A stretch of 64,000 bases of DNA from Amoebophrya sp. A120. Its lineage: Eukaryota; Protista; Dinoflagellata. The stretch lies in the NCBI GenBank assembly GCA_905178155.1, contig CAJINV010000005.1, forward strand, positions 2,420,054 to 2,484,053, in the 5' to 3' direction. Both the position numbers and the translations under genes were made by a program. Positions 1-62,300 of this stretch are shown here, one piece after another (the first letter of the stretch is position 1; every line of letters begins with the position of its first letter). The notes under the pieces are model-generated. The model made no database searches. It was given only the letters and a program-made list of their open reading frames with translations, and was not told the DNA's origin.

Positions 1-347
1 CGCGACGCGCCTGCTGGCGGGCCCCGTGCCGGTTTCATGGTCACCTAGGGCCGGGCCAGGGCCTGGATCATCTACACAAACAAGGAGCAAACAGCTCTAA
101 TTTAACCTACCTCTTCAATCAAATTGGCATCCTGGGTTAGCTAGTTCAAGTTGGGACTCCATCTAGATGGTTCAACATGATATCAATTCTGGGCACCGCC
201 TTCAAAGTCACCTGTGCCGTTTCCCGATGACGACGCTTCCGCACTCGAATCGCGAGCGGAAAGTTGCTATTTAAAAGCTTTGAAGAGATTTTTTTGAATA
301 AAAAATTAGATAATCGTTCAGACGGTCCCATATCCACCACTTTGCAG

Positions 348-6300: not shown

Positions 6301-9300
6301 TTCTAATTGCAATTTTGCATGAGAAAGCATGCAACACCAGTTGAGAATGTAACATTTGAGAACGCCATACAGCAAGTCTTGAACACGACAACCGGCGAGG
6401 TCGAGGATATGGATTGCAAAAATGTCTGGGTCTGGCAGACTGCAAGACTTGTGATGCACATTTTGCATGACCCACGAGGTCTGGAATGCAGAACCTAGCA
6501 TGAGAGATTCGGTGAGGTCTCCATCATGCCAATGCTGCATGAGAAACTCCCTCGCAGCTTGGTCGAAAGTGGACAGCTTTTGGCAGTCATGCAACACAGA
6601 TTTTTGCATGATTCTGATTTAGCATGACAAGTTCCACCTTTCCAGACCCAGACACTTTTGCATTTGATAGAGGAGGTGAAGGTGCAAAACGTGTACAACG
6701 AAACGACAGGGCAGATGGAGGAGGTATCCTGCGCAAAAGTATCGTACTCGTAGTAATCGCAATCATGCATTACAAACTTCCATCCCAAGGGAAAACAGCA
6801 TGACAAATTCCATTTATCATGCTGAGCGAATTTGTCATGCGATTTCTACTAGTACGATGCTTTTGCAATGCATAGGAAGTTCCAATCGCAAACGCAACGA
6901 ATTTAACGGTGACCCCGATCTCTCCCCCGGCGCCTGGTGTTGGGACGACGGCGGACGTCACAAACGCGCAACAGGCGATTGTGACGCAGTCCGGCGTGGC
7001 CTTGCTGTTCTGCAACCCGGGGCAGATATCAAATGCAACATAATGAAACCCTAGGTCTCAGAGAGCTAAACTTCTGATGCTGCATCTGGATGCTAAAAAC
7101 ATCTGTATTGCATGAGCAGCAAGAGGAATCAAATTTGGTTACGGGGAGAGGACATTTGTCATGCAGGATGCGCATCGATTTCGATGAGCGCTCAAAAAAA
7201 CTGTGATGCTAAGGCATACATCACAGACATCACGGATCATGGAAAATGTGCATGACAAACTTGTTCTCTCCCAGACTCAGACATGTTTGCAGTTCATAGC
7301 AGAAGGTGGTGGATGACCATTGCGAGGAGTGCCCGTACGGAACTTATTCGACGATTGGTGTGGAGTGTTTGGAGTGTCCGACCAACATGACCACCGTTGC
7401 GCCCTCCGCGACGTCTTTGGACTCCTGCGTCGGGAACTGTGAGCAGGGGTACGGCTGGACGGGCGCGATTTGTCGGCAGTGCGTGGACGCGGAGTACTCG
7501 GGCGCCGCGCCGGATGATCCCTGCCAAAAGTGCCCGGAGGGCATGATCGGCATCAACGCGACGTACGAGCGAATGATCGAGAACGTTTTCACCTTCCACA
7601 TGCACGATTTCCACCCGAAGCGGGTGATTGAGATGAACGCGACCGCGAATGTGGCGAACCAAAAGTTTGCTGTCAACGCGGATCAGAAGGAGAACGGGTT
7701 TGACTTAACGCCAAGATCGGAGAAAACCAAAAACATTGACTTCACCCCGAGAAGCGAGAAAAACCAAATCGATTTCACACCGCACGACGAGAAGTACGCG
7801 GTTCAAGCAGCTGCGAGGTCTATGGAAGTGTCAGAATCGAAATCAACAAAATCGAAATAATTTGTGATGCATAAAATCGATACCACTTGGAGCCTCAGTT
7901 TTCAAGTGGCGCATGACAAATTTCGGGAGCACCAAAATCCAGTCTGTCATGCTGTTTGGGCAAAGAAGACTGCTCCTGGCGTGCTGCTCCGGCAGCACAT
8001 CGCCTTCCCCTAATCAGGCTTGCAATCGGTCTCATTTGCCTACTCCCCAACACAGGCCTTACTTGCCCTACATTTTACGCATTGCAAATTTTTCGATTTT
8101 GTCGATTTCGATCCTGACACATCCATAAGGTCGGAGCCCGCGAAGTTCGACGTGTCTGGGAAACAACCCACTGCGTATCCTGAGTAAAAACATCCCCACA
8201 CCAGAGTCAAGATGGGGACTTTGCAACACAAACCTAGAACTTTTGGGGGTCACGCATCACAAGTTGCAGTCCGTAGTGTAGTGCAGGTTCGCAAAGCCAG
8301 CTGCATCAGAAATCCATCTGCTGATCCTATTTACAGCATTACAAATTCCAAAACACGACTAAAAATGGTTCTCCTGGCGATGCGCATTACAAATGTTCCC
8401 GTCATTGCAAATCTGCATGACAACTCTGGCGTGGGGACGTTTTTACTCAGGATACTGCGGGCGTGAAAATCACGGCGGACAGCCCCACCGCGGATCTGAA
8501 AATTCTCCCGAAAGACCAGCCGGAATCGAATGTGACCGTGTCTGCGAAGGAGGGAGAAACACAAATGAAGTTGCAACCAAAGAAACAACCGCAGTCGGAG
8601 TTCAGTGTAAACCCCGGGAGCCAAAAAACGAACCAATTCGATGTCCCCCTGGGGGAAAAGACGGAAAAGAAAGCGCAGTTCGGAGTTTTAACTCCGGACC
8701 AGACCAATCTGCTTTCCCGGCGGAAATTTCTTGCGAACCAAGCCGGGAAGTTTCCCTACATTCCGGGGATCGACTACATCCCGAGCAGCGACTTCCTCGA
8801 TGCGTGGTCGGCGAAGTGCAAGCCCAATTGCGCATTAGGACATTACTTCAACATCACCGTCGGGGCGTGTCAAGTTTGCCCCGTGAACCAGTACGGGTAC
8901 GGCGGGCCGATGCTGCAGTGCTTCCGCTGCCGTCCGCCGTTGGTGACCCGCGATCCGGCGGGCGGGGCTGGGAGTGATGAGAAGTGTTTTCCCCCCTGTA
9001 AAGCGGGGGAACGCTGGGGCCCGGAGGATAAGAACGATCCGGCGAGCAAGTTCGTCTGCGCGCCGTGCGAGTACGGGACCTACGCAACGGGTTCCCACTG
9101 GTCCGGCGCGCCCGGCTTGGGCGACAAGTGGCTTTCGCACCCGTGGCAGTGCGAGAAGTGCTCAGACAAAAAGCCGATCACGTCCACGAGCGGTGCAGTC
9201 TCCGACTTGCAGTGCGCGGTGCCGCCAATCACGAAAATGGCGATCAAAATCTCCGTATCAACTGCAAATATCGACGAAATCTGGGTCGTGTGGGAGGTTG

Positions 9301-12300
9301 CCAGGCCTGCTCTGCTTTTCATCTGCCATGAAGCATGTCTCGAAGTGCCTCTGTGGTGCATCAGGGCGAAAAGTGAATCCTCCTGACGCCTGCCATGCAG
9401 ATAAAAGTTAGCCTGCTCGCGAAATTATACGCAACAGATAGTAGGTCAGAAAACAAAAACACTATTGTCATGCTCCTCGGCTGCGTATTGCATTGGGCGT
9501 ATGTATCATTACATTTACAACTTTCTCGCATTACAGCTTTTACTGTCCAGACCCATATCGGTATTCGCAATGCATAACCCGCTGCGGGAGAATCGGTGCA
9601 AGCGGACACGTTTGACGACCCTGTAGTTTTGAAGGGAATGCAAGACTCGATTTCCGACTGGCTGCAAGCCTCCGACGTGCAGCTCTCCGTGGCCGCGAAT
9701 GAGGAGGGGACAACGGACCAAACGGTTTCGCAAATCGACTTGCTGCAACTCGCCACTGGGAGGAAGATCAAAAAGAAACTGCGCAAAGCGGCCACGGACC
9801 GGGAGATTCTGCTCGCGGTGGAGGCCACGGGGACGCCGCCGGGCGGAGTCACCGCGTCGGTTGACGATTTGTCGCAGACGATGCAGTCCAATCCGGATCT
9901 AGCAACTCTGGACCTGAACACGGAGGGGGCTGTGACGCACTGCGAGCCCGGGTACGGGATTTTCCCGGAGAACGCAACGTCGCCACTCTGCAGCATCTGC
10001 CCGGTCGGGTACTACGGACTGGGCGGGGAGAACCCACCGTGTATCGCCTGTCAGGAAGGGTTCAGTTCGGCGGCGACCAGCACAAACATCACCGCCTGCT
10101 TCCCCATCTGCGACAGTGGATACGGCGTGCACCCCGCGACGGGGGAGTGTGCGATTTGTCTGCCGGGGTTTTATGGGCCGGGGGGAGCGTCGGAACCCTG
10201 CCGGGAGTGCCCGCCCGGGAAGACGTCGAAGGTCGGAAGTCAGTACGAACAGGACTGTAAGCGGGAGTGCGAACTGGGCCGGTTCTGGTCGCAGGACAAG
10301 GAGTGCGCGGCCTGTCCGGTGCATACCTACAACGACGGGACCGACCCGATGGCGACCACGTGCAAGCAGTGTCCGATGGGGACGCTGACCGACTTTTCCG
10401 GCTCGGTTTCGAAACGAGATTGCGGGAAGTGCAACGATTTATTGCAGCTCTGCAACAACCGCGGGTTGTCGGTCACCGGCAACACCTGGGACGACGCGCA
10501 CAACGGCTGTCAGTGTGTCTGCGAGGAGGGGTACGACCACTGTACCCACTGCGCCACCTGCTTACCGGACTTCGAGAAAGACCGTTTCGGCAACTGCCGT
10601 CCGGCCTCCGACAAATGCCACCCGATCGAGGATTGCGCGAACCGAGGTAGTATCAACTGTAAAAATGTCTGGGTCTGGAAGGTCACAACTTGTAATGCTG
10701 TCTGTGGATTCTAAAAAAATTTGTATTGCATGACCAGCAAGAGGGGTCGGGTTTGTCCTACGCGGAGAGGGCATTTCGCATGCGGTAGAGGTATCACAAA
10801 GCCTCCTAAAAATCTGTGGTGCTACGGCATGTATTACAGACATAACGGCTCATGGAAAATATGCATGACAAATCTAGAAATCTTCCAGACCCAGACATTT
10901 TTGCAGTTGATAGGTAGGTTGTTGGAGGATTTCCGAGACGCAGAGTCCGGCTATTGCCGCTGCGCGTGCTACAACCCGAACGTGTTCGACCGGAAAACGG
11001 GGTGCAAGGAATGCGTGGATGGGCACAAGCTCGATCCGGAGCAGAATTGCGTCGTTTGCAAACTCGGCGAGATTTGGGACCCGGAAACCGCGTGCGAAAC
11101 TTGCTCGGACCCGAACGCCGATCCGCAGAAGGAGTGTCTGGAGTGTAAAGAGAACTACTTCCGGGACGAGGAGATCACGGACGGGAAGTGTATCCCGACT
11201 CCCACGACCACGACCACCCCGATCTGTTACCCGGGGCACGAACCGGTGAAGATCGATTTGATGTCGAAGAACCAGACCGCCGGCTTGAAGGCGGACGACG
11301 AAAACGACGAGTCTGATGCGGACGAAAAATCCATGACAGCTGGGGTCTTAGATCCGACCACCGCCAACGCGCCGCCGGGCGCCCCCGGGTCACGGTTCGA
11401 GTGCAAGCCCTGCCCGCTTGGGACGTACAGCCGCGTCGGCTTGCCGTGCGTCCAGTGCCCCACGGACATGACGACGAGAACGGTTGGTTCCGTCGAATAC
11501 GAAGAGTGCGTCGGGAACTGCAGTGTCGGTTTCGGTTGGATGGGGGCGAGTTGTAAGAAGTGCGGCGCCCACGAGTTCGCTTTGTTCCCCGACAAGCCCT
11601 GCGACCAGTGCCCGGCGGGGTACCGGGTTCTGCCGAAGTGGCGCGACATTTTCGCGGAAATCACGCAGAAGGAACGGCACGCGCTGTTGTTTGAGGCGGC
11701 GCGGAAGGACACGGACGAGTTTTTGCACGAACTTGCGATCATGATCGTGAAGCTGCAGGATCATGGGGGGCAGAACAACCCGAACGGGGAAGAAGATAAC
11801 ACTTTCCCGCCTCTGAGCGTGAATAACCCGGCGGAACTGGCACAAGAGTTGATGGAATTCGCGACGGAGGAAGGGAAGAAGATGCTGGAAATGTTGCGTG
11901 AAAAAGCAAAGATGTTCAAGTCGGACAAAAATGCGAATTCGCAAGCCGCTCGGCTGATGCGGAAACTAGCAAGCGAGGTGGAAGCCGTCTCGAAGAACGG
12001 TGCAAACGACTTTATTCCGGATCAGGAAGAATCTGTTTCTGTTCTCTCACGACACAAGAGAAACGGCACCGCGAACATGACTCTTTCTCCGGATTCGACG
12101 AACTTGAAAACGAACGTGGCACCGGATCCCACCACAGGCGTGGTAAATGCAACGACGTCCGTGAAAGCGGGTTTCATGCGGTACTTCAAAGTGAACACAA
12201 CCGCGAATACTTCCGCCCACGCCATGGATTTCGATTTGCCGCCGAAATTCCGTGTGGTGCCCGCCGGGAATGGGGATCCGGTGGTGTTGCTCCCGCCAGA

Positions 12301-45300: not shown

Positions 45301-48300
45301 GGACGTTCTGAAGAAGGACGAATCGTTGAAAGCGGTCACCAGACTGTTCTTCAAAGCGATCGAGGTGACCTGCAAACCCGGGTTCGGCTTCAAGCCGAAT
45401 GTGACTGACGACGCGATTTGCTACCCGTGCCCCGTCGGGTTTTTCGGTTTGGGGGGCATCGATCCGGAGTGCGAGCGGTGCGAAAAAGGGTGGTCCAGTT
45501 CTCCCGGGTCCACGGAGTGCTTTCCGGTCAACTGCATGCCGGGCGAGGGGCTGTTCAGACAAGCGAAAAAGTGCGAAATCTGTCCGCCGGACTTCTTCGG
45601 GAGCGGGAAGGATCAGCCGTGTTTGCCGTGTCCGAACGAGAACACACACAGCGCTGCTGGGTCACCTGATTTATCCAGCTGCAAGGCGAATTGCAAGTGG
45701 GGGGAAGGGTTCTTCGGAGGGAACAAGTGCATGCAGTGTCCGGCGAACAGCTTCTCCGCCGGCGGCTCCGATTCTTGCACCGTGTGCCCGGCCGGAACGG
45801 GCACGGGACCCATTTTGCCGCATGTCGTTCCCTGGACGTTAGACGATCCCGACGGGAAGAAAGCGATCATCACCGGGTTCTGGCAGAAGACCCAGTGCGG
45901 GCTGTGCAAAAACGACGTGCACTGCAACGGCGCGGGAATCGCCTCGGGGAACAGCTGGGACACCGAGAAGGGCGGGTGTCGGTGCGACTGCAATCCTGGG
46001 TATGCCGTATCAAATGTAAAAATGTCTGGGTCTGGAAACTTGTGATGCTGTGTGGCGTATCATGAGGAGGCCACAATTGCTGGCTCAGCATGACAGGTTT
46101 CTGAGCTTCTAGGTGTTGCCTATTCTGCATGACAAACTACGTTTCTGCATGACAGAAAAGTGGGGCTCTTTGGTAATGTGCATGACAGATTTAAGAGTCA
46201 TGCCAGAGAAGCATGACAAACTTGCATTCTTCCAGACCCACACATTTTTACATTTGATATGCCGGACCGAGTTGCAACTACTGCGCGGAAAACTACGCCC
46301 GGGACGAACGGACAAACAAGTGCAGGTCTTTATCAAAAGGAAAAATCCCCCCTCCCCATATCGAACGGGTACGCTTCCGGAAATTTGTGTTGCTGATTTG
46401 AGGTCACAAATCGCGTTTGTCTTGCAAGAAGACAAGGGCAGAAGCTTCCGCCCCATTATGGAAGCGATTTGTCATGCTGTTAGGCCTAAAGGGGAGCCGT
46501 TTGCCATGCTGAACAACTAGACCCATACGCCCCTACCTGGGGGCGTATCTGGCCGCAATGCCTCTCTGTAATACAGACCTGAATCGTGTACGCAAATCCA
46601 GCATAAGAAACTTCGTTTCGATAGGGGGAGGGGGGATTTTTCATTCTCATAGTCTTTGGTCACCGAAAAGTGCCCGGACGCGGCGTTTCTGTGCAACGGC
46701 AGGGGGCAGCTCGTGAACCTGTTCGAAGATGAGATGACGAAGATCTGCGAGTGCGTCTGCGATTCCGACGTGTACGACAGGCGGAACAACTGCCAAACGT
46801 GCTCCGCCAGTCGCTTATTGGACCCGCAGTCCCAGTGCGAGCGGTGTTACCAAATGCAAAAATGTCTGGGTCTGGAAGAATCCGAACTTGTGATGCTGCA
46901 TTTGGATTCCAAAAAAATCTGTATTTCATGACCAGCAAATAAGGGAATGCAATTTTGGCAACGCGGAGAGGGCATTTGTCATGCGGAATAGGTATCGCGA
47001 AGCCCTCAAAAAGTCTGTGATGCTAGGGCATGCATCACAGACATCATGGCCCAGGCAAAACGTGCATGACAAGTCTCAGAATCTTCGTACACCCAGACAT
47101 TTTTGCATTTGATAGGTGTTTAGACGACGACTTCGACCCATTGACGAACTGCAAGGAGCGGAAATCCTGCATGCAGACCAACACGTGCGTCGCGCCGCCG
47201 GTGTTTTTGTCTCCCTTCTTCTGTCCCGCGGGGTGGCAACCGGTGAGGGAGGAAGAAAAATGCAGGGAGATCGCGAGTTCCTTACCGACTTGCGGGAAGG
47301 AGTTGGTGGAAAGACGATCCACACTCTACGCCCCCTCGGACAACTACATGACCATCATGCAGAACGCGACCTGCTCCTTCCTCTGCGCCCAGGACCCCGC
47401 GACCTGCGGCGAGCTCTGGGCCTCGGGCACGTCTCTGTCCGCCGTGGCGCCCGACGCGATGGCCGCGGTGAACGCCCCGGCCGGGTATGTGGAGCAGGTG
47501 AAGCACCGATTACAACAGAAAGAGCAGGGTCTGGACGAAAACTCATTAACTTTCACCGGCGGAAATCTAGGCCTCCAAATGCCAAAAGCGTGTTACTTCG
47601 TGCATTGGGAGGAGGAGAATTCCGTCGCGGTGGTATTCAACGATTTGGTGAAAAAGAAGTACGACATGAAAGTTTACCCCGAAACAAAAACCGCTGCGCT
47701 CACCATTCGCGAGATGCCAAAGGCGCAAATCGGATTGCCGAAATTTGACGACTTGAAGAAACACGACCCGAAACTGACGACCCCGATAATTTCAGCGAAT
47801 AAGCAGGAATTCAAATTCGATTTGACCGACCCGCAGTGGCAGTGGAGAGATAAAACGTCGAAATTCAACATTTTGCCGCAATTTTCGGGCACGAAAAATT
47901 TGAAATTCGACGTCGAGACGTCCGATTTAGCGCCAGAAAGTGTACTGTTCAAGAAGAAGACTTCAGTGGAGGAGGAAACCAATTACCGGGAAGGAAAAAC
48001 AGAAGAGAAAAAGCAGCGCGACTACTTGTTCAACGTAAAGGACGCGAAGGGGGAGGAAAATGACTACGCGATACGACAACGGGCTTTGCGGTTCGACGCC
48101 GTGCGGCCGGTTTCAACCTCGATGGAATTCGAGTTAGAGCATGAGAAGGATAGTATTAGCACAACTGTAGGACGAGATGTTGATCCCGGTGTTGAGACCA
48201 CTAATTCGAGGCTGTTGGAAAAGATCGAAAAGAACGAAAATCTCAACGCCGAAGGGAAGGCGGACATCACCTTTTTCACTAAAGCGAAGGACTTCTTCCA

Positions 48301-51300
48301 CCGGGTGAAAAAGTTGACGTTTGGAAACTTGTGGAAAGAGGAAAAAGCGAAGGAAAAGGCGAAAGAGCAGCAAGTGAAAACCAAGAAGAAGAACCTTCCC
48401 CCTGCACTGGACCACAAAGCGGGTGGAAAAAGTGGCACAGTGGAAGCTTTGGCGAAGGAAAAGAAAAGCCTGCCGGCGCCTTTGGAGAAGGCCAAGGAGA
48501 AACAAGAGGAAGTGCAACTAGCGCCGGGAGCGGAGGGTGTGCACTACAAGAAAACTTTTCCGGTGTCTTTGGCAGAGGAAACTCGACAGGACACCACAGG
48601 TTTTAGACCGAGTTTGAGTTTTCACTTGAACAGTCCGGAAAGCGGTGAGGATGCGGCGTTTTCATCCCCTGGTGACAAAAATGTTGAGCAAGAAGACCCC
48701 ACGGCCGAACAAGAGCTTTCTCTGCTGCAAAGTTCCAAGCTCCAAGCCACCGGCGTCCTTTTCCAGCCGGCAACACTGTTCAAAGCCAGAGCGCGCATGC
48801 TGTGCGAACGGCAGCAGGAACAAGGACAACCGGCGGAACAAAGTTTGTTGGCCGTCTATTCATCCTCGGGCGGTAGAGCCACTAGTTCCTACGAAAAGCA
48901 GTACGCGATAGCCCCGTTGCCTATGAAAGATAAATCCTTCTGCCCGCAGAACCTGCAGAGGATCGCGCTGTTCAGCACCGAAGCAAATGAATTCTCAAAA
49001 TCCACCACCTGTTTCCCCACCTGCCACGCCGGCCAGCGCTGGAACGGCAAGCAGTGCGAGGCGTGTCCGGCCGATAGCTTCATGACGGAATTGCACTGGT
49101 GGCGAAAGCGGGAGGAACCAGTGACCAACTGGGCGGGATATAACGAGCACACTTGCGAAAAGTGCCCGAGAAATAGAAGGTTCACGATAGGAGGAGTTCC
49201 TGCTGCTGCGCTTGGAGGACAGCAATTCCTATCAGCATCACCGTCCAGGACCGGGAAAACGAGCAAGAATCACTGCGTCGCGCCCCCACTCACAACCATC
49301 CAGATCCGAATACCAAATGGCGAGCAATCGTTTCTGACGCTGTTGCAAGAGAATTTAGACGAGGAGTATTTCCGGCTGAGTAGCGACAAGAAAAAAACCG
49401 CGGTTTTAGAGGTGGTTTCCGAGGAAAACAAGGGATACATTTTCCAGCAGTTTTTCCAAAAAGCACTGAAATCCACAAAGGGATTATCCAAGCTTATCGA
49501 GCTCCAAGACTTCAGCATTGACGACGGGAAGACGCCACAGCAGGTGGGAAACGCGAAGTCTCTGACGTTTTTGACCAGTTCGTTACCCGAGGAACTAACC
49601 AGCCAGCACGAACCACAGGTGACGATCAACGTGAGGATACGAACGACCGAGCCAGTGGAGCTGATGTCCAAGCGGGAAGTGAGAAGCTTAAGAGGGTTGA
49701 AAGCGCTCTTAGCCGAAAAGTTGTTCCAACCGCAATTCGCAACCTTCGCCGACGTCGCCGCGGCCGATACGGATAACAACCTCTCCAGCAGCTGCGCGCC
49801 GGGGTACGGAAAAATTGAAATACCGGATGAAAGGAATGATGGAAAAAGTGAGCTGTCCTTTCTCTGCGAACAAATCTGCGACGAGGGTTCCTTCTCTCCC
49901 GGTGGTGATCACGCGGTGTGCACTGCCTGCCCGGATCACACGAGCAGCTTCCCCGCTTCTGGTAATTGTTTACCGACCTGCTCAGCCGGCTTTGGCCTGT
50001 CGGCGGCAGCGCCGAGGAGTACTTCTAGCGAGTCGTACGACAAGTTTATTTCATCTGGTGAAAGACATAATTCTGAAACTGCCTCTTCCCAAAATATCGG
50101 AACTACAAGTTCTACCTCCTCCCGCACCTGTGTCTACTGCCCCAAAAACCACTTCGGCCCCGGCAGACTGTCCGAGTGCCAAGAGTGCCCGGCGAGTCGC
50201 CCCATTTCCATGCCGGGGAGCTTATCCAAGAAAAAAACATTGTAGGTGTAACTTTTTTGGAGGAACAGCTGCATTACAAATTTGTCTGGCATGACAGCAA
50301 AAACCTGTCATGCGCAGATAGTACGCGAAAACGCCCTTTAATGGACCCTGCGATGCATGCCAAGCATGACAGACGCAATCATCCTGCATATTGAGCATCA
50401 CAAATTTACTTACACTAACAGCGTTTTTTTCTTGGATAGAGCTCGTCAGTGGAGCACTGTCGGGTGAGTTGCAAGGACGATGAGAGTATCAAATGCAAAA
50501 GTGTCTGGGTCTGGAAACTTGTAATGCTGCGCTGGGAATAGTGAATGCTCTGTAATGCCCAGGCAAGCATGAGAAGTATCTGCGCTTCTTTGTGTTACGT
50601 TTTTCGCATGACAAACTGCGTTTTTGCATGACAGGCACAAGGGTCTCTTCTTGGACACGCATCACAAACTTTTTGGTCATGCCAGACAAGCATGACAAAT
50701 CCCAAAATCTAGCGGACCCAGACATTTTTGCATTTGATAGAGAGGTGGGTGCCCAGGATTGGGAGATGTGTTTTGGAGGACGAAATGGAGGAGCAGGACT
50801 TGGCTCTGACGGAGGAAAGCATGTTGACGCATGGGGACGAGCAGTTGCTATCAACAGATGGAATAAATTCACCAGCATCTTCGCCTCTTTGGCCCCATGA
50901 CGTCGTAGGGGACACAGTTCTAGGCGAGGGCAGCACGAGTGCTGCAGCTCCTCGGGAAGATTCATCATCATCTTCATCTTCTCGTCTTGGTGGGCTTTTC
51001 CCATGGAAAACCGCAAATACACAAGCCGCACGGGAAGGGGAAGACGAAAAAGAAAAAGCCAAAAACGATATTGCCCCACAGCACCTGCTCCTTCCCGTCG
51101 CTGCTGATCCGAAGAAGAAAAGAGAAAAAGAAAAACAAGCCATTCTCGCCGAGGTTGGTCGAGCTGCGGAGCAAAGCGAGCAAGCGCAAAGAACGCATGA
51201 AGGACCAGCAGGTGGACCACAACAAGACGAGCACTTCCTTTATTCCCCGGAGGAGCTAGCTGCCGTGAAGAAGAGAGCGAGACAGGAACTGACGCTCGTG

Positions 51301-51657
51301 CAGTCGTATCAGCCAAACTTACAAGCCATGTCTCAAGAATTGGCGGAGAGAACGGCGGAGAAGAAAATTTTTGCCGAAAGCAACGACGAAGCAGCTGGCA
51401 CAACTTCTGCGTCGTCCTCTCCTCGTGTAGAGGTAGCACGCACGGCGCAGCGTGGTAGTGCAGATGAAGCAGGAGTAACAATGGTGCACTATGGAAAAGG
51501 AGCAGGAGATGAGCCTGGAAATAAAGGGAAAACTACCAGCAACCACGCTCCGAATCTGCTCATGACCCAAACAACGGAAAGCAGACCGAGCTCCGCTCCG
51601 AAAAAACCCATCGGGTCTCTGGTGAAAGGCTTGTCGTTCTTCAGACAAACTAGATAA
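348..51657 (+). CDS. Giant multi-exon Cys-rich, probably secreted or surface protein (~12,200 aa in window, 5'-partial) with GCC2/GCC3 (Ephrin_rec_like) repeats, EGF-like modules, a CAP domain and low-complexity linkers
   Basis: The successive + strand ORFs (264, 2603, 2899, 4324, 7306, 8463, 9596, 10721, 12627, 16753, 17230, 19697, 22697 ... 47030, 50728) join into one frame when each TAT...ATA element plus one 5-bp direct repeat is removed (49/49 frame-consistent). Stop TAA at 51655-51657. Start at 348 is a tentative acceptor (tttgcag); the true 5' end is probably upstream of the window. Confidence 0.85.
1150..2090 (+). other. Cys-rich supermodule copy 1 (GCC2/GCC3-like repeats + EGF-like)
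   Basis: CxPGxG...CxxCPxGxFS repeats followed by CNYRGQATGNIWNLDNGGCQCKCETGY. Confidence 0.8.
2443..2595. mobile_element. Introner 1, TIR family A (TATnnnnTGCAAAAGTATCG)
   Basis: TIRs; DR gcgaa/gcgga; 158-nt removal restores frame. Confidence 0.88.
2786..2947. mobile_element. Introner 2, family A
   Basis: TIRs; DR agcta/agcca; frame restored. Confidence 0.88.
4183..4390. mobile_element. Introner 3, family B (TATsCAAGAAAAAAAC)
   Basis: TIRs; perfect DR acttg; frame restored. Confidence 0.92.
6132..6369. mobile_element. Introner 4, family J (TATGGCGTTCTCAA; TAC start here)
   Basis: TIRs; DR caaca/cagca; frame restored. Confidence 0.88.
6408..6669. mobile_element. Introner 5, family C (TATnnnnTGCAAAAATGTCTGGGTCTGG)
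   Basis: TIRs; perfect DR gagga; frame restored. Confidence 0.93.
6725..6874. mobile_element. Introner 6, family A
   Basis: TIRs; DR ggagg/ggaag; frame restored. Confidence 0.88.
7027..7298. mobile_element. Introner 7, family C (left TIR decayed)
   Basis: Perfect DR gcaga; interior matches introner 14; frame restored. Confidence 0.88.
7821..8127. mobile_element. Introner 8, family D (TATGGAnnTGTCAGnATnGAAATC)
   Basis: Long TIRs; perfect DR aggtc; frame restored. Confidence 0.92.
8176..8454. mobile_element. Introner 9, family E (TATCCTnnGTAAAAACnTCCCCAC)
   Basis: TIRs; perfect DR ctgcg; frame restored. Confidence 0.92.
9256..9576. mobile_element. Introner 10, degenerate family C
   Basis: Decayed TIRs; DR ctccg/acccg; 326-nt removal restores frame. 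Confidence 0.72.
9935..11200 (+). other. Cys-rich supermodule copy 2
   Basis: Same architecture; CNNRGLSVTGNTWDDAHNGCQCVCEEGY; interrupted by introner 10651-10912. Confidence 0.8.
10651..10912. mobile_element. Introner 11, family C
   Basis: TIRs; perfect DR ggtag; frame restored. Confidence 0.93.
12305..12454. mobile_element. Introner 12, family A
   Basis: TIRs; perfect DR acatg; frame restored. Confidence 0.92.
12496..12801. mobile_element. Introner 13, family F (TATTACAATGAAAnTGCC)
   Basis: TIRs; perfect DR tccag; frame restored. Confidence 0.9.
13785..14640 (+). other. Cys-rich supermodule copy 3
   Basis: CNYRGTPKGNTWDSNGCMCGCDEGY preceded by CPxGYYS repeats. Confidence 0.8.
14905..15495 (+). 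other. CAP/SCP/PR-1 domain within the giant protein
   Basis: Motifs HNLYRCLHNVPPLIWN, FGENIA, WWYEDE, IGHYTQVVWGDSWELGC (CRISP signature) and VLCQYGRGGNV. Confidence 0.92.
16432..16694. mobile_element. Introner 14, family C
   Basis: TIRs; perfect DR cgcgg; frame restored. Confidence 0.93.
17124..17283. mobile_element. Introner 15, family A
   Basis: TIRs; perfect DR actgt; frame restored. Confidence 0.92.
18944..19349. mobile_element. Introner 16, family G (TATnnnAGGAAAAnTCCCCCCTCCCCATAT), with small nested insert
   Basis: TIRs; perfect DR tggtg; frame restored; 85 nt longer than siblings 22 and 46. Confidence 0.92.
19430..19686. mobile_element. Introner 17, family C
   Basis: TIRs; perfect DR cgagt; frame restored. 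Confidence 0.93.
20921..21440. repeat. Copy 1 of a diverged ~500-bp duplicated domain inside the nested insertion
   Basis: Shares blocks (gccgctgcacgaaga, ccccggtactcgagcacgc, ccccatgaccaacctatgaaa, accgagcgcacccgcttcctc, atgccgagggacttt, gggacggttga) with 22006-22499. Confidence 0.85.
22006..22499. repeat. Copy 2 of the duplicated domain
   Basis: Same conserved blocks in the same order as 20921-21440. Confidence 0.85.
23318..23579. mobile_element. Introner 19, family C
   Basis: TIRs; DR acgac/ccgac; frame restored; reverse complement of introner 5. Confidence 0.92.
24203..24348. mobile_element. Introner 20, family A (TAC start)
   Basis: TIRs; poor DR cgttt/aggtt; 151-nt removal restores frame. 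Confidence 0.78.
24460..24627 (+). other. Probable canonical GT-AG intron (168 nt, in frame, stopless)
   Basis: T-rich stretch gtatag...ttttccaacgcacag; removal gives EWTG-FDD. No TIR. Confidence 0.5.
25195..25446. mobile_element. Introner 21, family C (TAC start)
   Basis: TIRs; perfect DR gaacg; frame restored. Confidence 0.92.
26310..26630. mobile_element. Introner 22, family G
   Basis: TIRs; DR gcctg/gccgg; frame restored. Confidence 0.9.
28806..29044. mobile_element. Introner 23, family J
   Basis: TIRs; DR gcgtc/acttc; frame restored. Confidence 0.82.
29817..29967. mobile_element. Introner 24, family A
   Basis: TIRs; perfect DR ggagc; frame restored. Confidence 0.92.
31204..31418. mobile_element. 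Introner 25, family H (TATGAnAGTGCACAACT)
   Basis: TIRs; perfect DR gggac; frame restored. Confidence 0.92.
32291..32554. mobile_element. Introner 26, family C
   Basis: TIRs; perfect DR gacgg; frame restored. Confidence 0.93.
33138..33381. mobile_element. Introner 27, family J
   Basis: TIRs; perfect DR ggagt; frame restored; opposite orientation to 4 and 23. Confidence 0.92.
33458..33719. mobile_element. Introner 28, family C
   Basis: TIRs; perfect DR tggaa; frame restored. Confidence 0.93.
34546..34798. mobile_element. Introner 29, family C
   Basis: TIRs; perfect DR ggtga; removal in frame (the element itself is stopless in that frame). Confidence 0.92.
34871..35026. mobile_element. Introner 30, family A
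   Basis: TIRs; DR cgccg/cgcct; frame restored. Confidence 0.9.
36347..36609. mobile_element. Introner 31, family C
   Basis: TIRs; DR cctgg/cctag; frame restored. Confidence 0.9.
36656..36907. mobile_element. Introner 32, family C
   Basis: TIRs; perfect DR tctac; frame restored. Confidence 0.93.
37274..37533. mobile_element. Introner 33, family C
   Basis: TIRs; perfect DR gacac; frame restored. Confidence 0.93.
38071..38297. mobile_element. Introner 34, family I (TATCGnAGGAAAAAAGTGTT)
   Basis: TIRs; DR agcag/agtag; frame restored. Confidence 0.88.
38358..38609. mobile_element. Introner 35, family C
   Basis: TIRs; perfect DR ccgcg; close sibling of 32 and 45; frame restored. Confidence 0.93.
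38894..39149. mobile_element. Introner 36, family C
   Basis: TIRs; perfect DR ttcac; reverse complement of 29; frame restored. Confidence 0.92.
39531..39795. mobile_element. Introner 37, family C
   Basis: TIRs; perfect DR gcatg; frame restored. Confidence 0.93.
41016..41277. mobile_element. Introner 38, family C
   Basis: TIRs; perfect DR ggcgg; reverse complement of 11; frame restored. Confidence 0.93.
41327..41591. mobile_element. Introner 39, family C (TAC start)
   Basis: TIRs; perfect DR tcgca; frame restored. Confidence 0.92.
42785..43047. mobile_element. Introner 40, family C
   Basis: TIRs; DR tggcg/cggcg; frame restored. Confidence 0.91.
43135..43343. mobile_element. Introner 41, family B
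   Basis: TIRs; perfect DR cagca; frame restored. Confidence 0.93.
43757..43976. mobile_element. Introner 42, family H
   Basis: TIRs; perfect DR gacgg; opposite orientation to 25; frame restored. Confidence 0.92.
44100..44364. mobile_element. Introner 43, family C
   Basis: TIRs; DR tgccc/tgcct; frame restored. Confidence 0.91.
44424..44635. mobile_element. Introner 44, family B-like
   Basis: TIRs; perfect DR ggatc; frame restored. Confidence 0.9.
46008..46259. mobile_element. Introner 45, family C
   Basis: TIRs; perfect DR tgccg; frame restored. Confidence 0.93.
46331..46651. mobile_element. Introner 46, family G
   Basis: TIRs; perfect DR gtctt; frame restored. Confidence 0.92.
46848..47114. 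mobile_element. Introner 47, family C (TAC start)
   Basis: TIRs; perfect DR ggtgt; frame restored. Confidence 0.92.
50223..50438. mobile_element. Introner 48, family B
   Basis: TIRs; perfect DR gagct; frame restored. Confidence 0.92.
50487..50739. mobile_element. Introner 49, family C
   Basis: TIRs; perfect DR gagag; sibling of 28; frame restored. Confidence 0.92.
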
Positions 51658-52862: not shown

Positions 52863-52896
52863 TTTGATTTTTTCTACAGCTGTAGAAAAAATCAAA
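52863..52896. repeat. Perfect 34-bp palindrome
   Basis: tttgattttttctacag|ctgtagaaaaaatcaaa; a related hairpin lies at ~52707-52741. Confidence 0.85.
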
Positions 52897-53139
52897 CGGG
52901 ACTCGTCCGAAACCGAGAGAAGCGAGAAAATGGCAAGAACTCGAGAAGTTCTCACTTTTTCTCGAAGTTCTCGCTTTTTCTCGAAAGTCTTCTCGTCCCG
53001 CCCATTCGAGGCCAGCGGCCGAAAACCTCCAAAATACGGTAGAAAAAATCAAACACCTCCGGGGAAAATCAAAAGACCTCCACCCAGAAGCGGAAAAGCC
53101 GAATACACGCGCACGCGCGAAGCGATGCGCGAAGCCCCA

Positions 53140-55480: not shown

Positions 55481-56363
55481 GCATTCTTCTCGATTTTTCT
55501 CAAAGCACCCGACTGGTTTTTTCTACAGTGGGAGCCCGGTTTGATTTTTTCTAGATGCTTTGTGATTTTTTCTACCGTATTTTTTTTTTCTCGACATGTA
55601 ATCGGTATGAAAAGCAAAAAATACAATTTTGGTTTGATCCACTTCGTGTCTGTGAGTTTTGCTTATTAATGCAGCTTTTCTATGCCAAGGCCAAGCGATT
55701 CTCGGACTCGGTCTGCTATTTGCTTGTGATGTGCACAATCTCGGTGATTCCACGCTTGTGAAGCTGAATACAACGCAATGATCCACAAAAAACAGATCTT
55801 CGATCTTAGTGGAGGTTGATAGGCATTATTGAAGAGCCAAGAGTAGAAGAAGCAACCGCTATGACAAGTATCTACTTCAGGACCTCAATTTATTCTATGT
55901 CAACGTAAAACTAAAAGCAATCTTATTCTGTATGTACTACCATCGAGAAAATGAAGACAACATTCACAACCTCCTGTAAGATGTCATGATATTCAATCAA
56001 TATTTTATTTGACGCAGCGGCTCCTACAGCGATGTAGCTCCTACGGCGCGCGAAGTTCCGGGATCTTACACGAAGATCTGCCGACGTGTGATCTCGGAGC
56101 TCCTATTTGATCCAATTTTGCTGGTTACGATCGAATTGAATATTGATTGTGCCGCGCTCGTTCCCGCGAGACGTGGAACTTCCCGCAATCTGTGGAACAT
56201 GTAGTTGCACGCCTGATTATATTTCAATAGCCGTCTAAGGACTTCTACTTCCCAATTATCCGGAAGTGTCTATAGATCGTCGGACCGTATAGCACTCACT
56301 CAACTCTCACACTAGCACAATTCTTTATGTGAACTCTGTTCGTCGACGTTGTTTATTTCAAGT

Positions 56364-59300
56364 ATGACCTCGAAGAACGTGAGCAAGGCGAAGTCCAAAG
56401 CCCCCAGTGGGGGCGGCAAAAATGCGGGCAGTGCTGGCAATGGTACCGCCACCAAGGTCGTGCGCCCAAAGGAAATAAAAGTGCCACCAGCTGTAGTCGT
56501 GCCAACAGAAGTGACGCCTGGCGGGGTTCTTGTGACTGAGGACACAAATGCGGTCACCACAGGCCGGCTCACCGACCTGCCAGAAGTTACCAGGCCGGCG
56601 GTGTTGGACACCATAGAACAGAGGTAATTCTATCTATTTTGTCGCGTTTGGTAGGAATGAGCGAGATCCTGACCCCGATGAATTGTTTCATGGAAGCGAT
56701 ATTTCTATTGGCTCCATGATTTTTTGAGGTCCTTCCTTCCTATCGTGCAGAGATAGATATCTTCAGATGCGGTTTATAAGATGATTTTTGCATGCTCAAG
56801 AAACGGAACAACTACCCCTGGTCCACAGGTACACCACCGGCAACCAAGCCTACACCTTTGTCAGTGACGACCTCCTGGTTGCGGTCTCACCAAAACTGCA
56901 CACTTTAACGAAACATGCCACGGCTTCAAATTCAACATCGAGTTCTAATCCCGGCATTGATACCCCCGCACAGCAGCAGCTCCCCCAGCAGCCCGACCCG
57001 CATGCATTCGACCAAGAACACCTGGATTTTTACTCGCGCTACTCCTCTGGCGACCAGCTCCCGGCGAGGTTTTTCCCGCGTCGCATGCGAGACGAGTACA
57101 AAGCGTCAGTTTTTTCAGCACGGTCGAGGGCTGGTTCGAGGGAATCGTTTCCGGCACAGCTGCATCCGGCTAAATCACCCACGCCGGCCCTGTCTTCGAC
57201 ACCAGGCGGCAATAAGAGGCACAAGAACCTCCAGCTGCAAAGTATGCGCACTGTCGAGCCTCACTTGTTCGAGATGCCGGAGAAGGCTTTTCGGGATTTA
57301 CTGTTCTTGAAACAGAATCAAAGCCTTGTTTTCCTAGGGGAAGAGACAAGAACCGCGTTCGACATGTCGTTGGAGTTCCTGTGCTACAAAAGCAGCAGCA
57401 GCAGCAGCAGCAGTAGTTCTTCATCTTCGTCGACGTCTACCTGTGTAGCAACATCAAGGGAGCCCGGAACAGAATCTGATAGTACGCACGCGCAGATAGA
57501 AGATAGAATACGCAGCGCGATGCTCCTCTTAGAAACCTTTGGTCACAGCGGTGGCGCACAAAGCAGTGCAAATTCTGTGCCTCACTTTGGAAAGTTTCTG
57601 CAATTGTACTTCGGCGCGGACACTGTGGGGCGACCGGTGATTTTAGGAGCGACGATACGACAATTTTTGCTGGAGAGCAAGCAGGTCCTGGAGCAGAGCG
57701 GCGAGGCGATTCTGCAGTGCTTTTTGCAGTTGGAGAACGCCGGGTTATTACAGGGTTTGCTCGACTACAGGAATGAAGACGGTACAGCTCCTGTCGAGGG
57801 GCAAGAGCAAGGAGCTGATTTGTTTTCAGACACCGAGACCGCTGTGCATAGCCGGCTGCCAAGCACGCAGCGTCTCATCCGGACGTTTTTGGACCATGCG
57901 GCTGCTACAGAAGAAGCTGGGGTCGCTGTTGCGAGAAATAGTCCGGAGACCAATATTAAAGGACTGGGAAACCACGGCGCTCCTGTCCCGATAGTACAGG
58001 CCGAAATGTCCCCACGAGGCCCAAAAATCAGCAGCCTGGGAAGAGACTACGAGGAGTCCTCACGTGAACGGCAGGGCCGACTACAGGCTTTGGAAGCCAT
58101 TTTTGGCAGAGCGTCGCCTTTCGACGGAGCAGAAGATGATAGGTCAGCGACAACCCGATCCTCATCGTTCGAAGCCACCTGCGACGCCCTGGAGGTGTGC
58201 GGGTTTTCGGAAGAGAAGGTGGAAAACCTTTTTCAAACCGTCGCGGGCATCCGATGTATCGCAATTGCTGCTACAGCTACAGAGGGAACTACCGCCGTCG
58301 ATGCGGAACAGAAGAGGACTCTATTGAGACTTGCCAACGCTCTTCTCGGATTCTTGGATAGCACTAGCAGCAGCAGCAGTACAACCAGTTTTTACCTCGG
58401 CGGAGCGACCGCGGCTGTTGTGCACTCTAGCCAAGAAGATTATGCGGACGTCGCCACACCGATCCATGCTCCAAAGACGAAAACACAAAAACAGGCTGAG
58501 CAAACGGCGGATTTGGTCGACAAGAACGAGTCGCCGCTGCTGGTAGAAACCAAAATCGTGCCAATGCTAGAAGCGAAGCAGCACCAGAACGGCGGGATCA
58601 CCGAAACCACGCCCAGTTCGGAACTCGCGACTTTAGCGCAGAACCTTTACCAGAATCTGTTTTCTTTCCTGGTTCGCGCTTTGAATGTCTGTTTAAAGAC
58701 GCAACAGCGAAGAAAGATAAACGGTGCTTCTAGTGCCACGGCTCAACGAGAAGCGACATCAAACCCTACACGACGTCGTGGTAAGTTTCTTCTAAACCCG
58801 ACAGACACCCCGAACTTTGAGGCCTTCGTCGCAAAAAACTTTTTGTCTACCGACTCTGATGTTGCGGATCTAGACGCGGTTTCGAGCTGCATCGGCTTGT
58901 TAGACGGTGGTTTCAGAATGGTTCGACAACCACGACCATCCTCCACGATGAAAATGGCATCTGCAGGAACTCCACGGAAAAATAAATCGCAGTCCCTGGA
59001 CGCTCTGCTTCAGAACTACGTGAACGACAAATTTGCGCATTTTCTCTCGTCCATTCTGTTTCAAAAGGAGTACGAAGCGGTTGCGGAGGAACTTGGGAAT
59101 GACGTGGTGCAGGAACTGTATGCGCATTGCGACAAAAAGGACCATCCGCTGGTTTTGGGGAAAACGCTCGCGAGTCTGGAAACTGCGATCTTCCCCGAGT
59201 TGAAAATCGGTTTAAAGACGTCCTCTGAAAATAATGCTGCTCCCAATGAAAATGCGTCACCGAATACTAAAACGGAAAGCGCACGACCGTCAAGCTCCTC

Positions 59301-62300
59301 CTCGAAGCAGGCCAAGAGCAAGGCGAAAAAATCTTCAAATAAAGTTGCGGGCGTAGGAGCTGCATCTACTACGGAAGCAAGTGGTGCGACCACCTCTGCG
59401 GCGACAATGTCCTTGAGTGAACGCCTCCGGAAGAAAATTTCCAATTTGAAACACGACTACATTTCCATCCGGGCAGGAGAAATCTTCGCGAAGAACAAAA
59501 ATAAAGCCAATGTCGGGTTGGAGCTAGGCGTCAGGCATTTTGGAGGAGAAGAGCCGACCTGGTATGATGTTGCCGAGTTTGAAACTACCTTGGAGCGAGC
59601 GGAAAATAAGACCACCGCCTGGATGAATATCGGTGCAGAAGATATGGATCTGTCAGGATTGAAATCGTCAAAGTTGAAATTATTTGTGATGCATAAAATG
59701 CAAGGCATGAAGTGCTTGTCTTGCCGGGATGGCAAGTGAGGCCGACCGTCAGCCTGTTTAGGGTTTGAAATAGACATGCTGAAGTAGCATGACAAAAGCA
59801 GTCTCCTGTGCCCAAACAGCATGACAAACTGGATTCCGGTGCTCGAAAAATTTGTCATGCGCCGCTTGATAAGTGGGCTTGCGACTGGTATCGGTTTCAT
59901 GCATGACAAATTATTTCAACTTTGTCGATTTCAAACCTGACGCTTCCATAGAAGACACCAGCAGTAGTGCCGGTCCTCTTTTCCTCTCACTTTGTGACAA
60001 CAGCGAGAATCTCGTTGTCCGCTTCATGTGCCGCGACCCCACGAAGCCCACGACCTCGTCGTCCCAAGCGGAGAACGGTCGTGCCGCGGTGGCACAAAGC
60101 AAGCCCTTTTGTTCATCCTTTGTGCTGCACACGGACACAATGGACACGATGGCGATGCTGAAGCAGTTACTCTCCAGGTCTAAAGTGCGGTTCGTCCTTG
60201 GCGTTGAAGCTGGAACCGTTTCTACTACTGCGTCTTCGGAGGCTAGTACAACAAGGACGGATTTTTTACCAAGCTTCAACTTCGATCGCGAGGCGTTTGA
60301 CGCGCAACTACGCAAATTCGATTTATACTCCGTCGCCGGGATCCGGAAGCGCGGGTATGCGCACTGTTTATCACATTCTGAGTTTCTGAAGCGATACAAA
60401 GCGATAGCAGCTCCATCATCTCCAGGAGGGTCGACTACATCGAGTGCAGCAAAAATAGTAGACGCTGTTGTTTCCGGTCTGAACGAGGCAATTGGCGGCC
60501 AATTGCTCGTGTCGGATAAAGATAGAAGAAGCGAACTCCTCATCCAATGCGGGAAATCCAAAGTCTTCTTCAAAGAAGCCACTGCAAGTCTCCTTGAGAA
60601 GAAGAAAGTGATCCTCTCCAGCCAGTTCGCGACCAGGATACAGAAAGTCTGGCGCGGAAAAATAATCCGGAAGGAGCTGAAAGCCATGCCGATTTTGCTT
60701 CGGAAGATCCAGGACTTCCCAAAGAGGTTGAAGCTTGATTACAACGAATCGGAAGAGCTGACCGCGGTATCCTACCAAAACTTCTCCGAAGTGGAGAAGC
60801 ACGTCAATCAATGTGCGGAACTACTGGACTTGGTGCACGAGTCGACCTTTTGTATTGATGCGGGTCAAGATAATGAACAGCAACAGCAGGCAGCACCAGC
60901 AGAAGCACCAGCAGACCAAGGGCTGGTGCAGCTGCGTCGTCGAGAATTAGGTAATATACAACTGAATCCGGTGAAGACCCTGGAGCAGTGCCGCCAGAGA
61001 CTCCAGAACGTCGGCAATTTGTTTCAGCACGTCGAGCAGATGTGCGAAACGGAGGACCGGACCATGGAGATTTTCAGCATGCTGCAACGGTGTGCGGCTT
61101 TAGGTATGGGCCACTGTTTTGCCGTCCAGCAGCTCCAAGCGAGACACGACAATTTGGTCGCGCAGAGCAGCAGAGTTTTGCAGCTGAAGCGGTTGACGAA
61201 GAGGTGTCAGAGGTTTTTGGCGAAGACAGAAGGGCTGTTTGAACCTGTAGTGGTACAACAACTACCGGGTGGTGGAGGTAGTACAAATACATCTTCAGTG
61301 GAGATTTCCAATCTCGACCGTGAAGCCTTCAAACTGATGCGGAAAAGCGAGTTGAGCCAGGAGCTCAACGCCTCGGCCCTGCTTCTATCCGAGGAGGAAG
61401 ACAATAATTCTCCTAGCGGCGGAGGTGTTTCGACTGTTTTTACACCAAGAGCCACGAGAGCTCCAAACGACGGCGGACAGCACATCAGTAACCAAGACCA
61501 GGAGACGCGCTTCCAAAAATGCGTCGAGGAGGTTTTGCAGGCGTTTTTGACCGATTCTCATCGATTGTTAAACGAAATAGCGGTTTTCCAGCGGGAAGTT
61601 GAAATTATCGGAGAGCGCGACAGCGCCGTTGCGACCTGGACGAAACTCCTGACTTTCGACCCGTTTGAGGCCTTCTGTGACCTGACCTACACCGCGGTGC
61701 CGAAAGTGAAAAGTAGACACGCGGAAGTGAAGGAAAAAATGCTTCTTCAGCAACAGCTAGATGGAAAGAACAGTAGCGAAAATATTAAAAAAACCGTACA
61801 ACGCCTCAACACGCTCGAGCTGGAGTTCAACGCGAGAAGCAAGGCCTCGTCCAGTAGTAGATTCGGCAACTACAGCACCAGAACCGACAGCGTTTTCAGT
61901 TCGGGGGCGCCGAGCAGGAATTTGTCAACGGCGCAAACGACATCAAAACGTGGTCAAGAAATGATGGAGGATAGTGCTGCTGATCAAGAGATGGCAGTGG
62001 CGATCGATCTTTCCTCCGAAGCGCCACAGTTCCAGAATTTGTCGACAGCAGTTCCTCCGGGAGGCACCGGCCAGCTGACCACAGGAAACGACGACGAAGA
62101 CTACCCGATTAATATGCTTCAGCCCCAGCAGCTCGAAATCACGTCCTTCCTCCCATCCCCAACAAATAACTTTTTGAGCGACACGCTTCTCTCCCTGCTG
62201 CGCCTAGCCCCGAAGGGCACGCTTGACTCCGCGGGATGGCGGCGGGTTGGGAGCCTTGCTGAAGACCATAGCTTTAGCTTTATTCCGGCAGAAAGCTGCA

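Follow-up and report, generated by a model that had tools for sequence, protein, structure and literature searches.

How is an intron recognised if copies of the same sequence are removed in either direction relative to the gene that carries them? This question is raised by a 64,000-nucleotide stretch of the genome of the dinoflagellate Amoebophrya sp. A120 (assembly GCA_905178155.1, contig CAJINV010000005.1, positions 2,420,054 to 2,484,053 of the forward strand; hereafter the window), in which two + strand genes are interrupted by 50 elements with terminal inverted repeats (TIRs). The elements are known Amoebophrya introners: the A120 introner elements, their repeats and the hairpin idea have been published (Farhat et al. 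2021, PMC7789003), and that paper, in its passages on introns, states as open how tens of thousands of non-GT-AG introns are removed in a host without detectable U1 small nuclear RNA (snRNA). A sequence-only reading of the window had proposed that removal is independent of orientation, with the information in a symmetric TIR hairpin or symmetric motifs, and had pointed to structure-guided end joining or a bidirectional branch signal. Here we report that the terminal triplets of the elements are polar, that is, tip variation depends on gene direction, and that the cut lies inside the target duplication.

The tips of the elements are polar

All 50 window elements carry TAY at the start and ATA at the end, with TA termini at 100 of 100 ends, and all five TAC tips sit at the gene-5' end. 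The sample was enlarged by a TIR pattern scan, which yielded 127 loci (769 kb) of one other, related assembly; no TIR match was found in viral contigs. A detector allowing at most two mismatches in the duplication called 596 unique elements in these loci, 452 of them with a perfect 5-bp duplication; identity to the best-matching window element is 78-96%. Benchmarked on the window, the detector recovered 44 of 50 elements with two false calls, and shuffled DNA (149 kb) gave no calls. A codon model, with the window as its training set, was applied to the flanks to assign host strand and frame (214 of 591 strict calls; 292 with locus consensus). The orientation set comprised these 292 locus elements and 49 window elements (element 18 excluded), whereas the tip set (n=349) comprised the 50 window elements and 299 locus elements, drawn from 591 and 494 candidates on condition that 35 or more codons were open on both sides and that the frame margin was 3.

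In the tip set, TAT starts 334 of 349 elements. At tip positions 1, 2 and 3, deviations from TAT total 0, 1 and 14 at the gene-5' end and 9, 4 and 1 at the gene-3' end (Fisher p=2.9e-6); the 299 locus elements alone give p=7e-5. The variants accepted are TAC, TAA, TAG and, once, TGT at the 5' end, and ATG, ATC, ATT, ACA and AGA at the 3' end. The sole 3' variant at position 3 (GTA, L038:124) is a weak call, without which the counts become 0/1/14 versus 9/4/0. When contig-strand labels were used instead of gene strand, the effect was gone (p=0.68). An end-agnostic search of 65 loci yielded 5' variants at position 3 only (9/290) and 3' variants at positions 1-2 only (7/288), and the other TIR and arm positions showed no such asymmetry after correction. 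Two features are fixed on the RNA: the U of the starting triplet (349/349), mostly followed by A, and the A three bases inside the 3' end (348/349).

Removal of an element with five nucleotides restores the frame and bounds the cut

Taking out 49 elements, each with 5 nt, joins positions 231-51657 into a single open reading frame (ORF) of 12,337 codons in any of six registers, and the same operation opens the frame of gene 2 across element 50, which bears out the frame restoration described in the sequence-only reading. The frame is not restored if the element is taken out with 0, 1, 3 or 4 nt instead. Element 29 could also be retained in frame, and the frame by itself is no proof of its removal; 44 of the 50 window elements have stops in all three sense frames, as repeated families without coding capacity.

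A query with exon 40 returned a protein of 3,063 amino acids with the source name Amoebophrya sp. A120 (P0001), which is identical to the last 3,063 residues of the joined gene 1 ORF at 3,062 positions, without gaps. All 14 junctions that it covers (elements 36-49) drop the element and 5 nt exactly. They include copies of the main family, F1, in both directions (36, 38, 43, 45 and 49 versus 37, 39, 40 and 47) and the opposed siblings 41 and 48. P0001 stems from gene models that, according to the methods passages of PMC7789003, were built from transcript alignments with long ORFs chosen, and its junctions may be taken as indirect support for removal from messenger RNA.

A perfect duplication leaves the cut unplaceable, and mismatched duplication copies were therefore used to bound it. 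In P0001, base 5 at element 43 comes from the right copy, the left base 5 being dropped, and base 1 at element 40 comes from the left copy. Among the loci, bases 1 and 3 of the left copy are required to give the conserved RYATLP of ETF-beta (L074), and left base 2 to give the GD that is conserved in ALAD (L079); a stop arises in L067 if right base 1 is used. The cut lies inside the duplication, in register (1,4), with 1 nt removed before and 4 nt after the element, or in register (2,3). Register (1,4) is likely the correct one; under it, the commonest codon-phase class of the 299 locus elements (151/81/67; p=1.5e-9) would be intron phase 0. One stop under registers (0,5) and (1,4) is an artefact of an adjoining element. 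A C just after the right duplication is found in 124 elements versus 85 expected (n=349), an enrichment not significantly greater than that of G one base before it (94 versus 76, p=0.19).

A symmetric cut one base outside each TIR, removing 3 nt, was considered and rejected. The idea came from the NT-AN pairs in Table S4 of Farhat et al. (part of PMC7789003) and from seven large A120 families in the Gozashti 2025 dataset. Such a cut leaves 4 stops at 349 junctions versus none for the inner registers with 5 nt, and it fails on P0001, where 14 of 14 junctions lack 5 nt. Synonymous inner mismatches had favoured it in the window (7/10), and this support was lost in the loci (12/31). The published NT-AN pairs are likely due to the aligner sliding within the duplication.

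Element orientation is random with respect to the gene

The seven claims of reverse-complement interiors made in the sequence-only reading (eight pairs) were all confirmed. With 30 nt trimmed from each end, the pairs align solely as reverse complements at 72-93% identity (5/19, 166/192; 11/38, 187/202; 29/36, 155/181; 4/27, 139/187; 23/27, 131/185; 25/42, 118/163; 1/30, 74/92; 8/50, 186/243), with scores of 86-329 versus 19-43 on the same strand and a maximum of 24-31 in 200 shuffles. The main family is split 12 versus 11 by orientation in the window, with 0 of 126 similarity edges inconsistent, and 58:69 in window and loci combined (p=0.38). Both orientations occur in six of nine multi-copy window families and in all 12 families of at least four copies in window and loci; nearest neighbours lie in the same orientation 154 times and in the opposite one 156 times. 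Element orientation relative to the gene is random. An orientation bias was considered and rejected, as no threshold gave a significant chi-square across families (p=0.67, 0.49 and 0.30). Two tighter subfamilies are skewed 27:11 (p=0.014) and 17:4 (p=0.007), uncorrected; a small bias may exist.

Orientation independence alone is what one expects of a TIR transposon, and it has precedent. Introners in either orientation with near-canonical ends are described for Polarella glacialis and Aureococcus anophagefferens in the relevant passages of Roy et al. (10.1101/2020.10.14.339549); opposite-orientation copies have already been searched for in work reported in part of PMC9860276, and symmetric stwintrons of fungi are the subject of PMC8469720. 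The Polarella and Aureococcus introners, as described there, have GT/GC/GA donors, AG acceptors and a bias towards one orientation, whereas the Amoebophrya elements need neither G(+1) nor AG and their main family is unbiased.

Pairing of the arms and internal motifs

The arms are predicted to pair with values of 0.88-0.89 at positions 9-13 and 0.44-0.65 at positions 4-7, and the sense and antisense strands are predicted to fold alike. A occupies arm positions 11-14 in 277-335 of 349 elements, depending on position and arm. Positions 4-8 do not covary between the arms (match of 0.672 within versus 0.689 between elements), while positions 9-16 match slightly more within than between elements (0.876 versus 0.844, p=0.0005, 120 elements), a slight covariation that could also be explained by subfamily structure. 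G.U wobbles do not exceed A.C mismatches (275 versus 285 in 277 elements; 40 versus 51 in the window alone). Terminal pairing is disrupted or weakened by each of the tolerated tip variants, and the tips need not pair.

The sense strand of the window elements shows no evident polypyrimidine tract (pyrimidine share 0.566 versus 0.561) and no evident branch consensus (YTRAY in 9 versus 9 of 50 elements). The claim that the information lies in symmetric ends thus stands in so far as the orientation of the interior is irrelevant and neither a one-sided polypyrimidine tract nor an internal branch consensus is seen; polarity-blind removal and reliance on hairpin pairing alone do not stand. A bidirectional branch signal is retained in changed form: the role probably falls to the A of the ATA terminus, which symmetry supplies at each end, and not to the internal GCATGACA motif. 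The latter was rejected as a polar signal: its counts of 14 versus 3 in the window failed to replicate in the 292 locus elements (49 versus 55). Motifs of the GCATGACA type are repeated on both element strands and rare in exons; GCAT(G/C/T)AC(A/G) has three matches per strand in 33.6 kb of exon. They are more likely binding repeats for a transposase or another protein. GCAT(G/C/T)AC(A/G) occurs on both strands of unrelated families, often ~49, 81, 113, 134 and 173 nt from an end.

A proposed polar reaction acting on mirror-image ends

Removal is polar and therefore most likely acts on RNA. We suggest that the elements are transposon introns of the type of MITEs (miniature transposable elements with inverted repeats), which have mirror-image ends and are removed by a polar, spliceosome-type reaction that reads the U of the upstream tip and the A of the downstream tip, presumably by lariat chemistry; we rate this account at slightly better than even. 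The TIRs, the duplication and the random orientation suggest insertion by a TIR DNA transposase, which would cut with a 5-bp stagger and be indifferent to gene direction. Under register (1,4) the intron would read N-U-(A/G) at its start and A-U-A-N-N-N-N at its end, with U at +2 as in a GU-R donor. The nucleophile for branching would be the fixed A, the seventh base from the 3' end, which the inner TIR stem would place beside the donor in lieu of U1 snRNA; spacing from this A, rather than AG, would determine the 3' cut. Because TAT...ATA is a dyad, each end could serve as donor or as branch, which would make orientation irrelevant despite a polar machine. In group II introns the branch distance is 7-8 nt.

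Like U2-type introns, the elements have polar ends with an invariant U (349/349), at +2 if register (1,4) holds, and an invariant A (348/349) in a putative branch role. U2, U4, U6 and most spliceosomal proteins were found in Amoebophrya strains and U1 snRNA was not, as stated in the snRNA passages of PMC7789003. A fixed short distance from branch to acceptor is described for Giardia, Trichomonas and Spironucleus in passages of PMC6679479; the distance in Giardia and Trichomonas is similar to the one proposed here. More tentatively, and at somewhat less than even chances, we envisage a rewired spliceosome in which the TIR replaces site selection by U1 and U2, with branching at the terminal adenosine beside the N-U-R donor and an acceptor measured six bases downstream. 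If so, any TAT...ATA element with a 5-bp duplication would be a ready, scarless intron in either direction, under a two-base code in place of GT-AG.

Several observations weigh against this account. The polarity rests on 29 variant elements among 349, and in a looser set, called by strand margin only (n=361), the counts are 0/1/9 versus 8/2/4 (p=0.0045), with four 3' variants at position 3; all four of these GTA ends are flanked on one side by a stop or a short open frame. A spliceosome would ordinarily call for G at intron +1 and a 3'-terminal AG; neither is enriched, and GT...AG ends occur in 9 of 349 elements under (1,4), unlike in U2 introns. Nor does the 3' end show an enriched U2-type context around the A (at arm position 5, 173 5' arms and 154 3' arms have A). 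The stem shows no excess of wobbles, so that its pairing in the RNA is putative. In L072 and L033, elements are spaced 5 and 7 nt apart, and exons of only 0-2 nt would result, an awkward demand on a spliceosome. As to the register, no conserved-residue case tells (1,4) from (2,3), and window elements show little excess of one phase (20/15/15).

The most serious rival, which we consider less likely, is a non-spliceosomal endonuclease with a ligase, of the kind proposed for the nonconventional introns of euglenids. The enzyme would bind the TIR stem asymmetrically, read that U and that A, and cut 1 nt upstream and 4 nt downstream of the stem, freeing the intron in linear or circular form. This rival accounts for the polarity, the exact removal of 5 nt with the element, the lack of preference for G(+1) and AG, and the micro-exons. 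Euglena introns offer a parallel: in passages of PMC12501133 they are laid out alike, a 3-nt spacer preceding CAG and a 5-nt spacer following CTG, with both motifs required, and in passages of PMC11282704 they leave as circles. What is fixed in the Amoebophrya elements, however, is a U(+R) resembling a donor and a single A at a distance like that of a branch point, not a paired motif; tip-unpairing variants are tolerated, and the host retains most of the spliceosome (snRNA and protein passages of PMC7789003).

Structure-guided joining that is blind to polarity and relies on the symmetric hairpin alone, the strict form of the earlier proposal, is improbable. The random orientation, the predicted pairing at arm positions 9-13 and the closer within-element match at positions 9-16 speak for it. 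It is already contradicted by the polar tip variation, by variants that unpair the tips, by the missing covariation at positions 4-8 and by the wobble count, and the cut is asymmetric, its symmetric form giving the 4 stops and the failure on P0001 described above. Still less probable is excision from DNA before expression by a transposase dimer, as for the internal eliminated sequences of ciliates: TA-bounded TIR ends and random orientation would suit a DNA enzyme, yet the tips are polar and a dimer has no evident access to the direction of transcription. None of 638 junction 29-mers is present as DNA in the loci or the window, a weak test on a small sample, and the published introns are supported by RNA sequencing against an assembly that retains them (intron passages of PMC7789003). 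That the tip polarity is a mutational or detection artefact, uninformative about the machine, is hardly credible: variant elements are few and the strand was called by a model trained on the window, but both ends were detected in the same symmetric way, strand bias is absent from other conserved T/A positions, and the effect, seen first in the window, was replicated in separate loci and vanishes under contig-strand labels.

Relation to known systems

In the introner passages of PMC7789003, the A120 introners resemble the window elements in their TAT-start inverted repeats ending in As, direct repeats of 3-5 nt, length of ~240 nt, non-canonical borders and predicted hairpin; P0001 bears their source name and matches the window exons. 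The window elements correspondingly show TAT, about seven variable bases and then As, a border repeat of 5 bp and non-coding repeated families. The same passages differ in calling the splice positions variable, and they do not treat element orientation, tip polarity or cut register. A literature search, mostly of open texts and with figures excluded, found no report of tip polarity, orientation counts or cut register for Amoebophrya. The addition to what is known is a two-base polar tip code and a bounded cut site.

The nonconventional introns of euglenids and diplonemids are similar in being MITE-like, with paired ends, a short 5' and a longer 3' spacer around a terminal motif and no GT-AG (passages of PMC12501133, PMC12621601 and PMC11282704). 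The euglenid introns described there have CAG/CTG, spacers of 3 and 5 and a need for both halves, whereas in the window and loci the ends are TAT/ATA, the likely spacers measure 1 and 4, and nothing beyond U(+R) and one A is fixed. In Fritillaria borealis, MITE-derived introns with TIRs and target-site duplications are removed by a changed U2 spliceosome (passages of PMC11282704 and 10.1101/2025.08.15.670264); its introns prefer AG-AC and AG-AT, and the passages on them do not describe loss of U1. Introns of Giardia, Trichomonas and Spironucleus, in which the branch point is fused to the 3' splice site, share the fixed short distance from branch A to acceptor, and base pairing shortens the long ones. 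These introns retain, according to the same part of PMC6679479, GT/AG ends and a conserved branch motif, whereas only the A is fixed in Amoebophrya.

Among DNA transposons, IS3EU/GingerRoot elements have TA..TA termini, with fungal examples that read TAYGG..CCRTA and carry TIRs longer than 30 bp (passages of PMC10045372 and PMC12730594). The window ends share the TA..TA termini throughout, and they differ in a duplication of 5 bp from the 6 bp usual in that group. The window holds no autonomous copy.

The tip polarity leads to three single-base predictions, concerning the donor U, the branch A seventh from the end and the cut register 1/4. A tip code would explain cheap invasion, at any site, in either direction and without a scar, and the two-base polar code and the bounded cut make the open splicing mechanism testable.

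Elements and genes of the window

A screen for paired TIRs flanked by a 5-bp repeat found 46 of the elements, and four were added by eye at leftover frame breaks. Their order matches the numbering of the sequence-only reading (5 at 6408, 19 at 23318, 50 at 59643-59950). The duplication is perfect in 36 of 50, its two copies disagree at position 4 or 5 in elements 1, 2, 6, 22, 31, 30 and 43, nine families are multi-copy, and lengths range from 146 to 406 nt except in element 18. As a sample the window is concentrated, with 49 of 50 elements inside gene 1.

Table 1. Genes and introner elements of the window. A and B denote the two orientations within a family.
Feature	Positions	Strand	Family and orientation	Remarks
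Gene 1	231..51657	+		12,337 codons after 49 removals; first Met at 489; Ephrin_rec_like cysteine repeats and CAP domain
Gene 2	56785..64000	+		start upstream, open past window end; Myosin_head match; holds element 50
Element 1	2443..2595	.	F2 A	
Element 2	2786..2947	.	F6	
Element 3	4183..4390	.	F3 A	
Element 4	6132..6369	.	F4 A	5' tip TAC
Element 5	6408..6669	.	F1 A	main family
Element 6	6725..6874	.	F2 B	
Element 7	7027..7298	.	F1 B	
Element 8	7821..8127	.	F7 A	
Element 9	8176..8454	.	F8	
Element 10	9256..9576	.	singleton	
Element 11	10651..10912	.	F1 B	
Element 12	12305..12454	.	F2 A	
Element 13	12496..12801	.	singleton	
Element 14	16432..16694	.	F1 B	
Element 15	17124..17283	.	F2 A	
Element 16	18944..19349	.	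F5	
Element 17	19430..19686	.	F1 B	
Element 18	20404..22870	.	F8	2,467 nt owing to nested insert
Element 19	23318..23579	.	F1 B	
Element 20	24203..24348	.	F2 B	5' tip TAC
Element 21	25195..25446	.	F1 B	5' tip TAC
Element 22	26310..26630	.	F5	
Element 23	28806..29044	.	F4 A	
Element 24	29817..29967	.	F6	
Element 25	31204..31418	.	F9 A	
Element 26	32291..32554	.	F1 A	
Element 27	33138..33381	.	F4 B	
Element 28	33458..33719	.	F1 A	
Element 29	34546..34798	.	F1 B	in-frame retention also possible
Element 30	34871..35026	.	F2 B	
Element 31	36347..36609	.	F1 A	
Element 32	36656..36907	.	F1 A	
Element 33	37274..37533	.	F1 A	
Element 34	38071..38297	.	singleton	
Element 35	38358..38609	.	F1 A	
Element 36	38894..39149	.	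F1 A	junction in P0001
Element 37	39531..39795	.	F1 B	junction in P0001
Element 38	41016..41277	.	F1 A	junction in P0001
Element 39	41327..41591	.	F1 B	5' tip TAC; junction in P0001
Element 40	42785..43047	.	F1 B	first base of left duplication copy kept in P0001
Element 41	43135..43343	.	F3 A	junction in P0001
Element 42	43757..43976	.	F9 B	junction in P0001
Element 43	44100..44364	.	F1 A	fifth duplication base in P0001 from right copy
Element 44	44424..44635	.	singleton	stop under symmetric cut; junction in P0001
Element 45	46008..46259	.	F1 A	junction in P0001
Element 46	46331..46651	.	F5	junction in P0001
Element 47	46848..47114	.	F1 B	5' tip TAC; junction in P0001
Element 48	50223..50438	.	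F3 B	junction in P0001
Element 49	50487..50739	.	F1 A	junction in P0001
Element 50	59643..59950	.	F7 B	in gene 2

Gene 1 appears to be under-annotated, because the public model, P0001, spans only its final 3,063 amino acids. No orthologue of gene 1 was found among the related-assembly loci, and protein searches (proteins up to 2,000 amino acids) gave no further gene models. Between the two genes, positions 53100-55470 hold a GC-rich satellite with units of ~91 nt and 220-240 nt and short inverted AT-rich repeats on its flanks, which had no match in the related-assembly loci examined. Near the start of gene 2, a candidate intron of the ordinary GT...AG kind occupies positions 56624-56750, alongside non-canonical element 50.

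In the related assembly, elements at L072:7881-7887, L033:13407-13415 and L033:14674-14682 lie 5 or 7 nt apart, which would leave exons of 0-2 nt; gaps of 8-21 nt between neighbours are absent among 498 element pairs. Element 18 contains a 2.2-kb nested insert between 20-nt direct repeats (at 28-47 and 2216-2235 of the element). The left edge of the insert bears a run of T, and inside it lies a 430-nt duplication that is 75% identical; the insert is possibly a retroelement of the type lacking long terminal repeats. The host frame is restored even across the 2,467 nt of this element.

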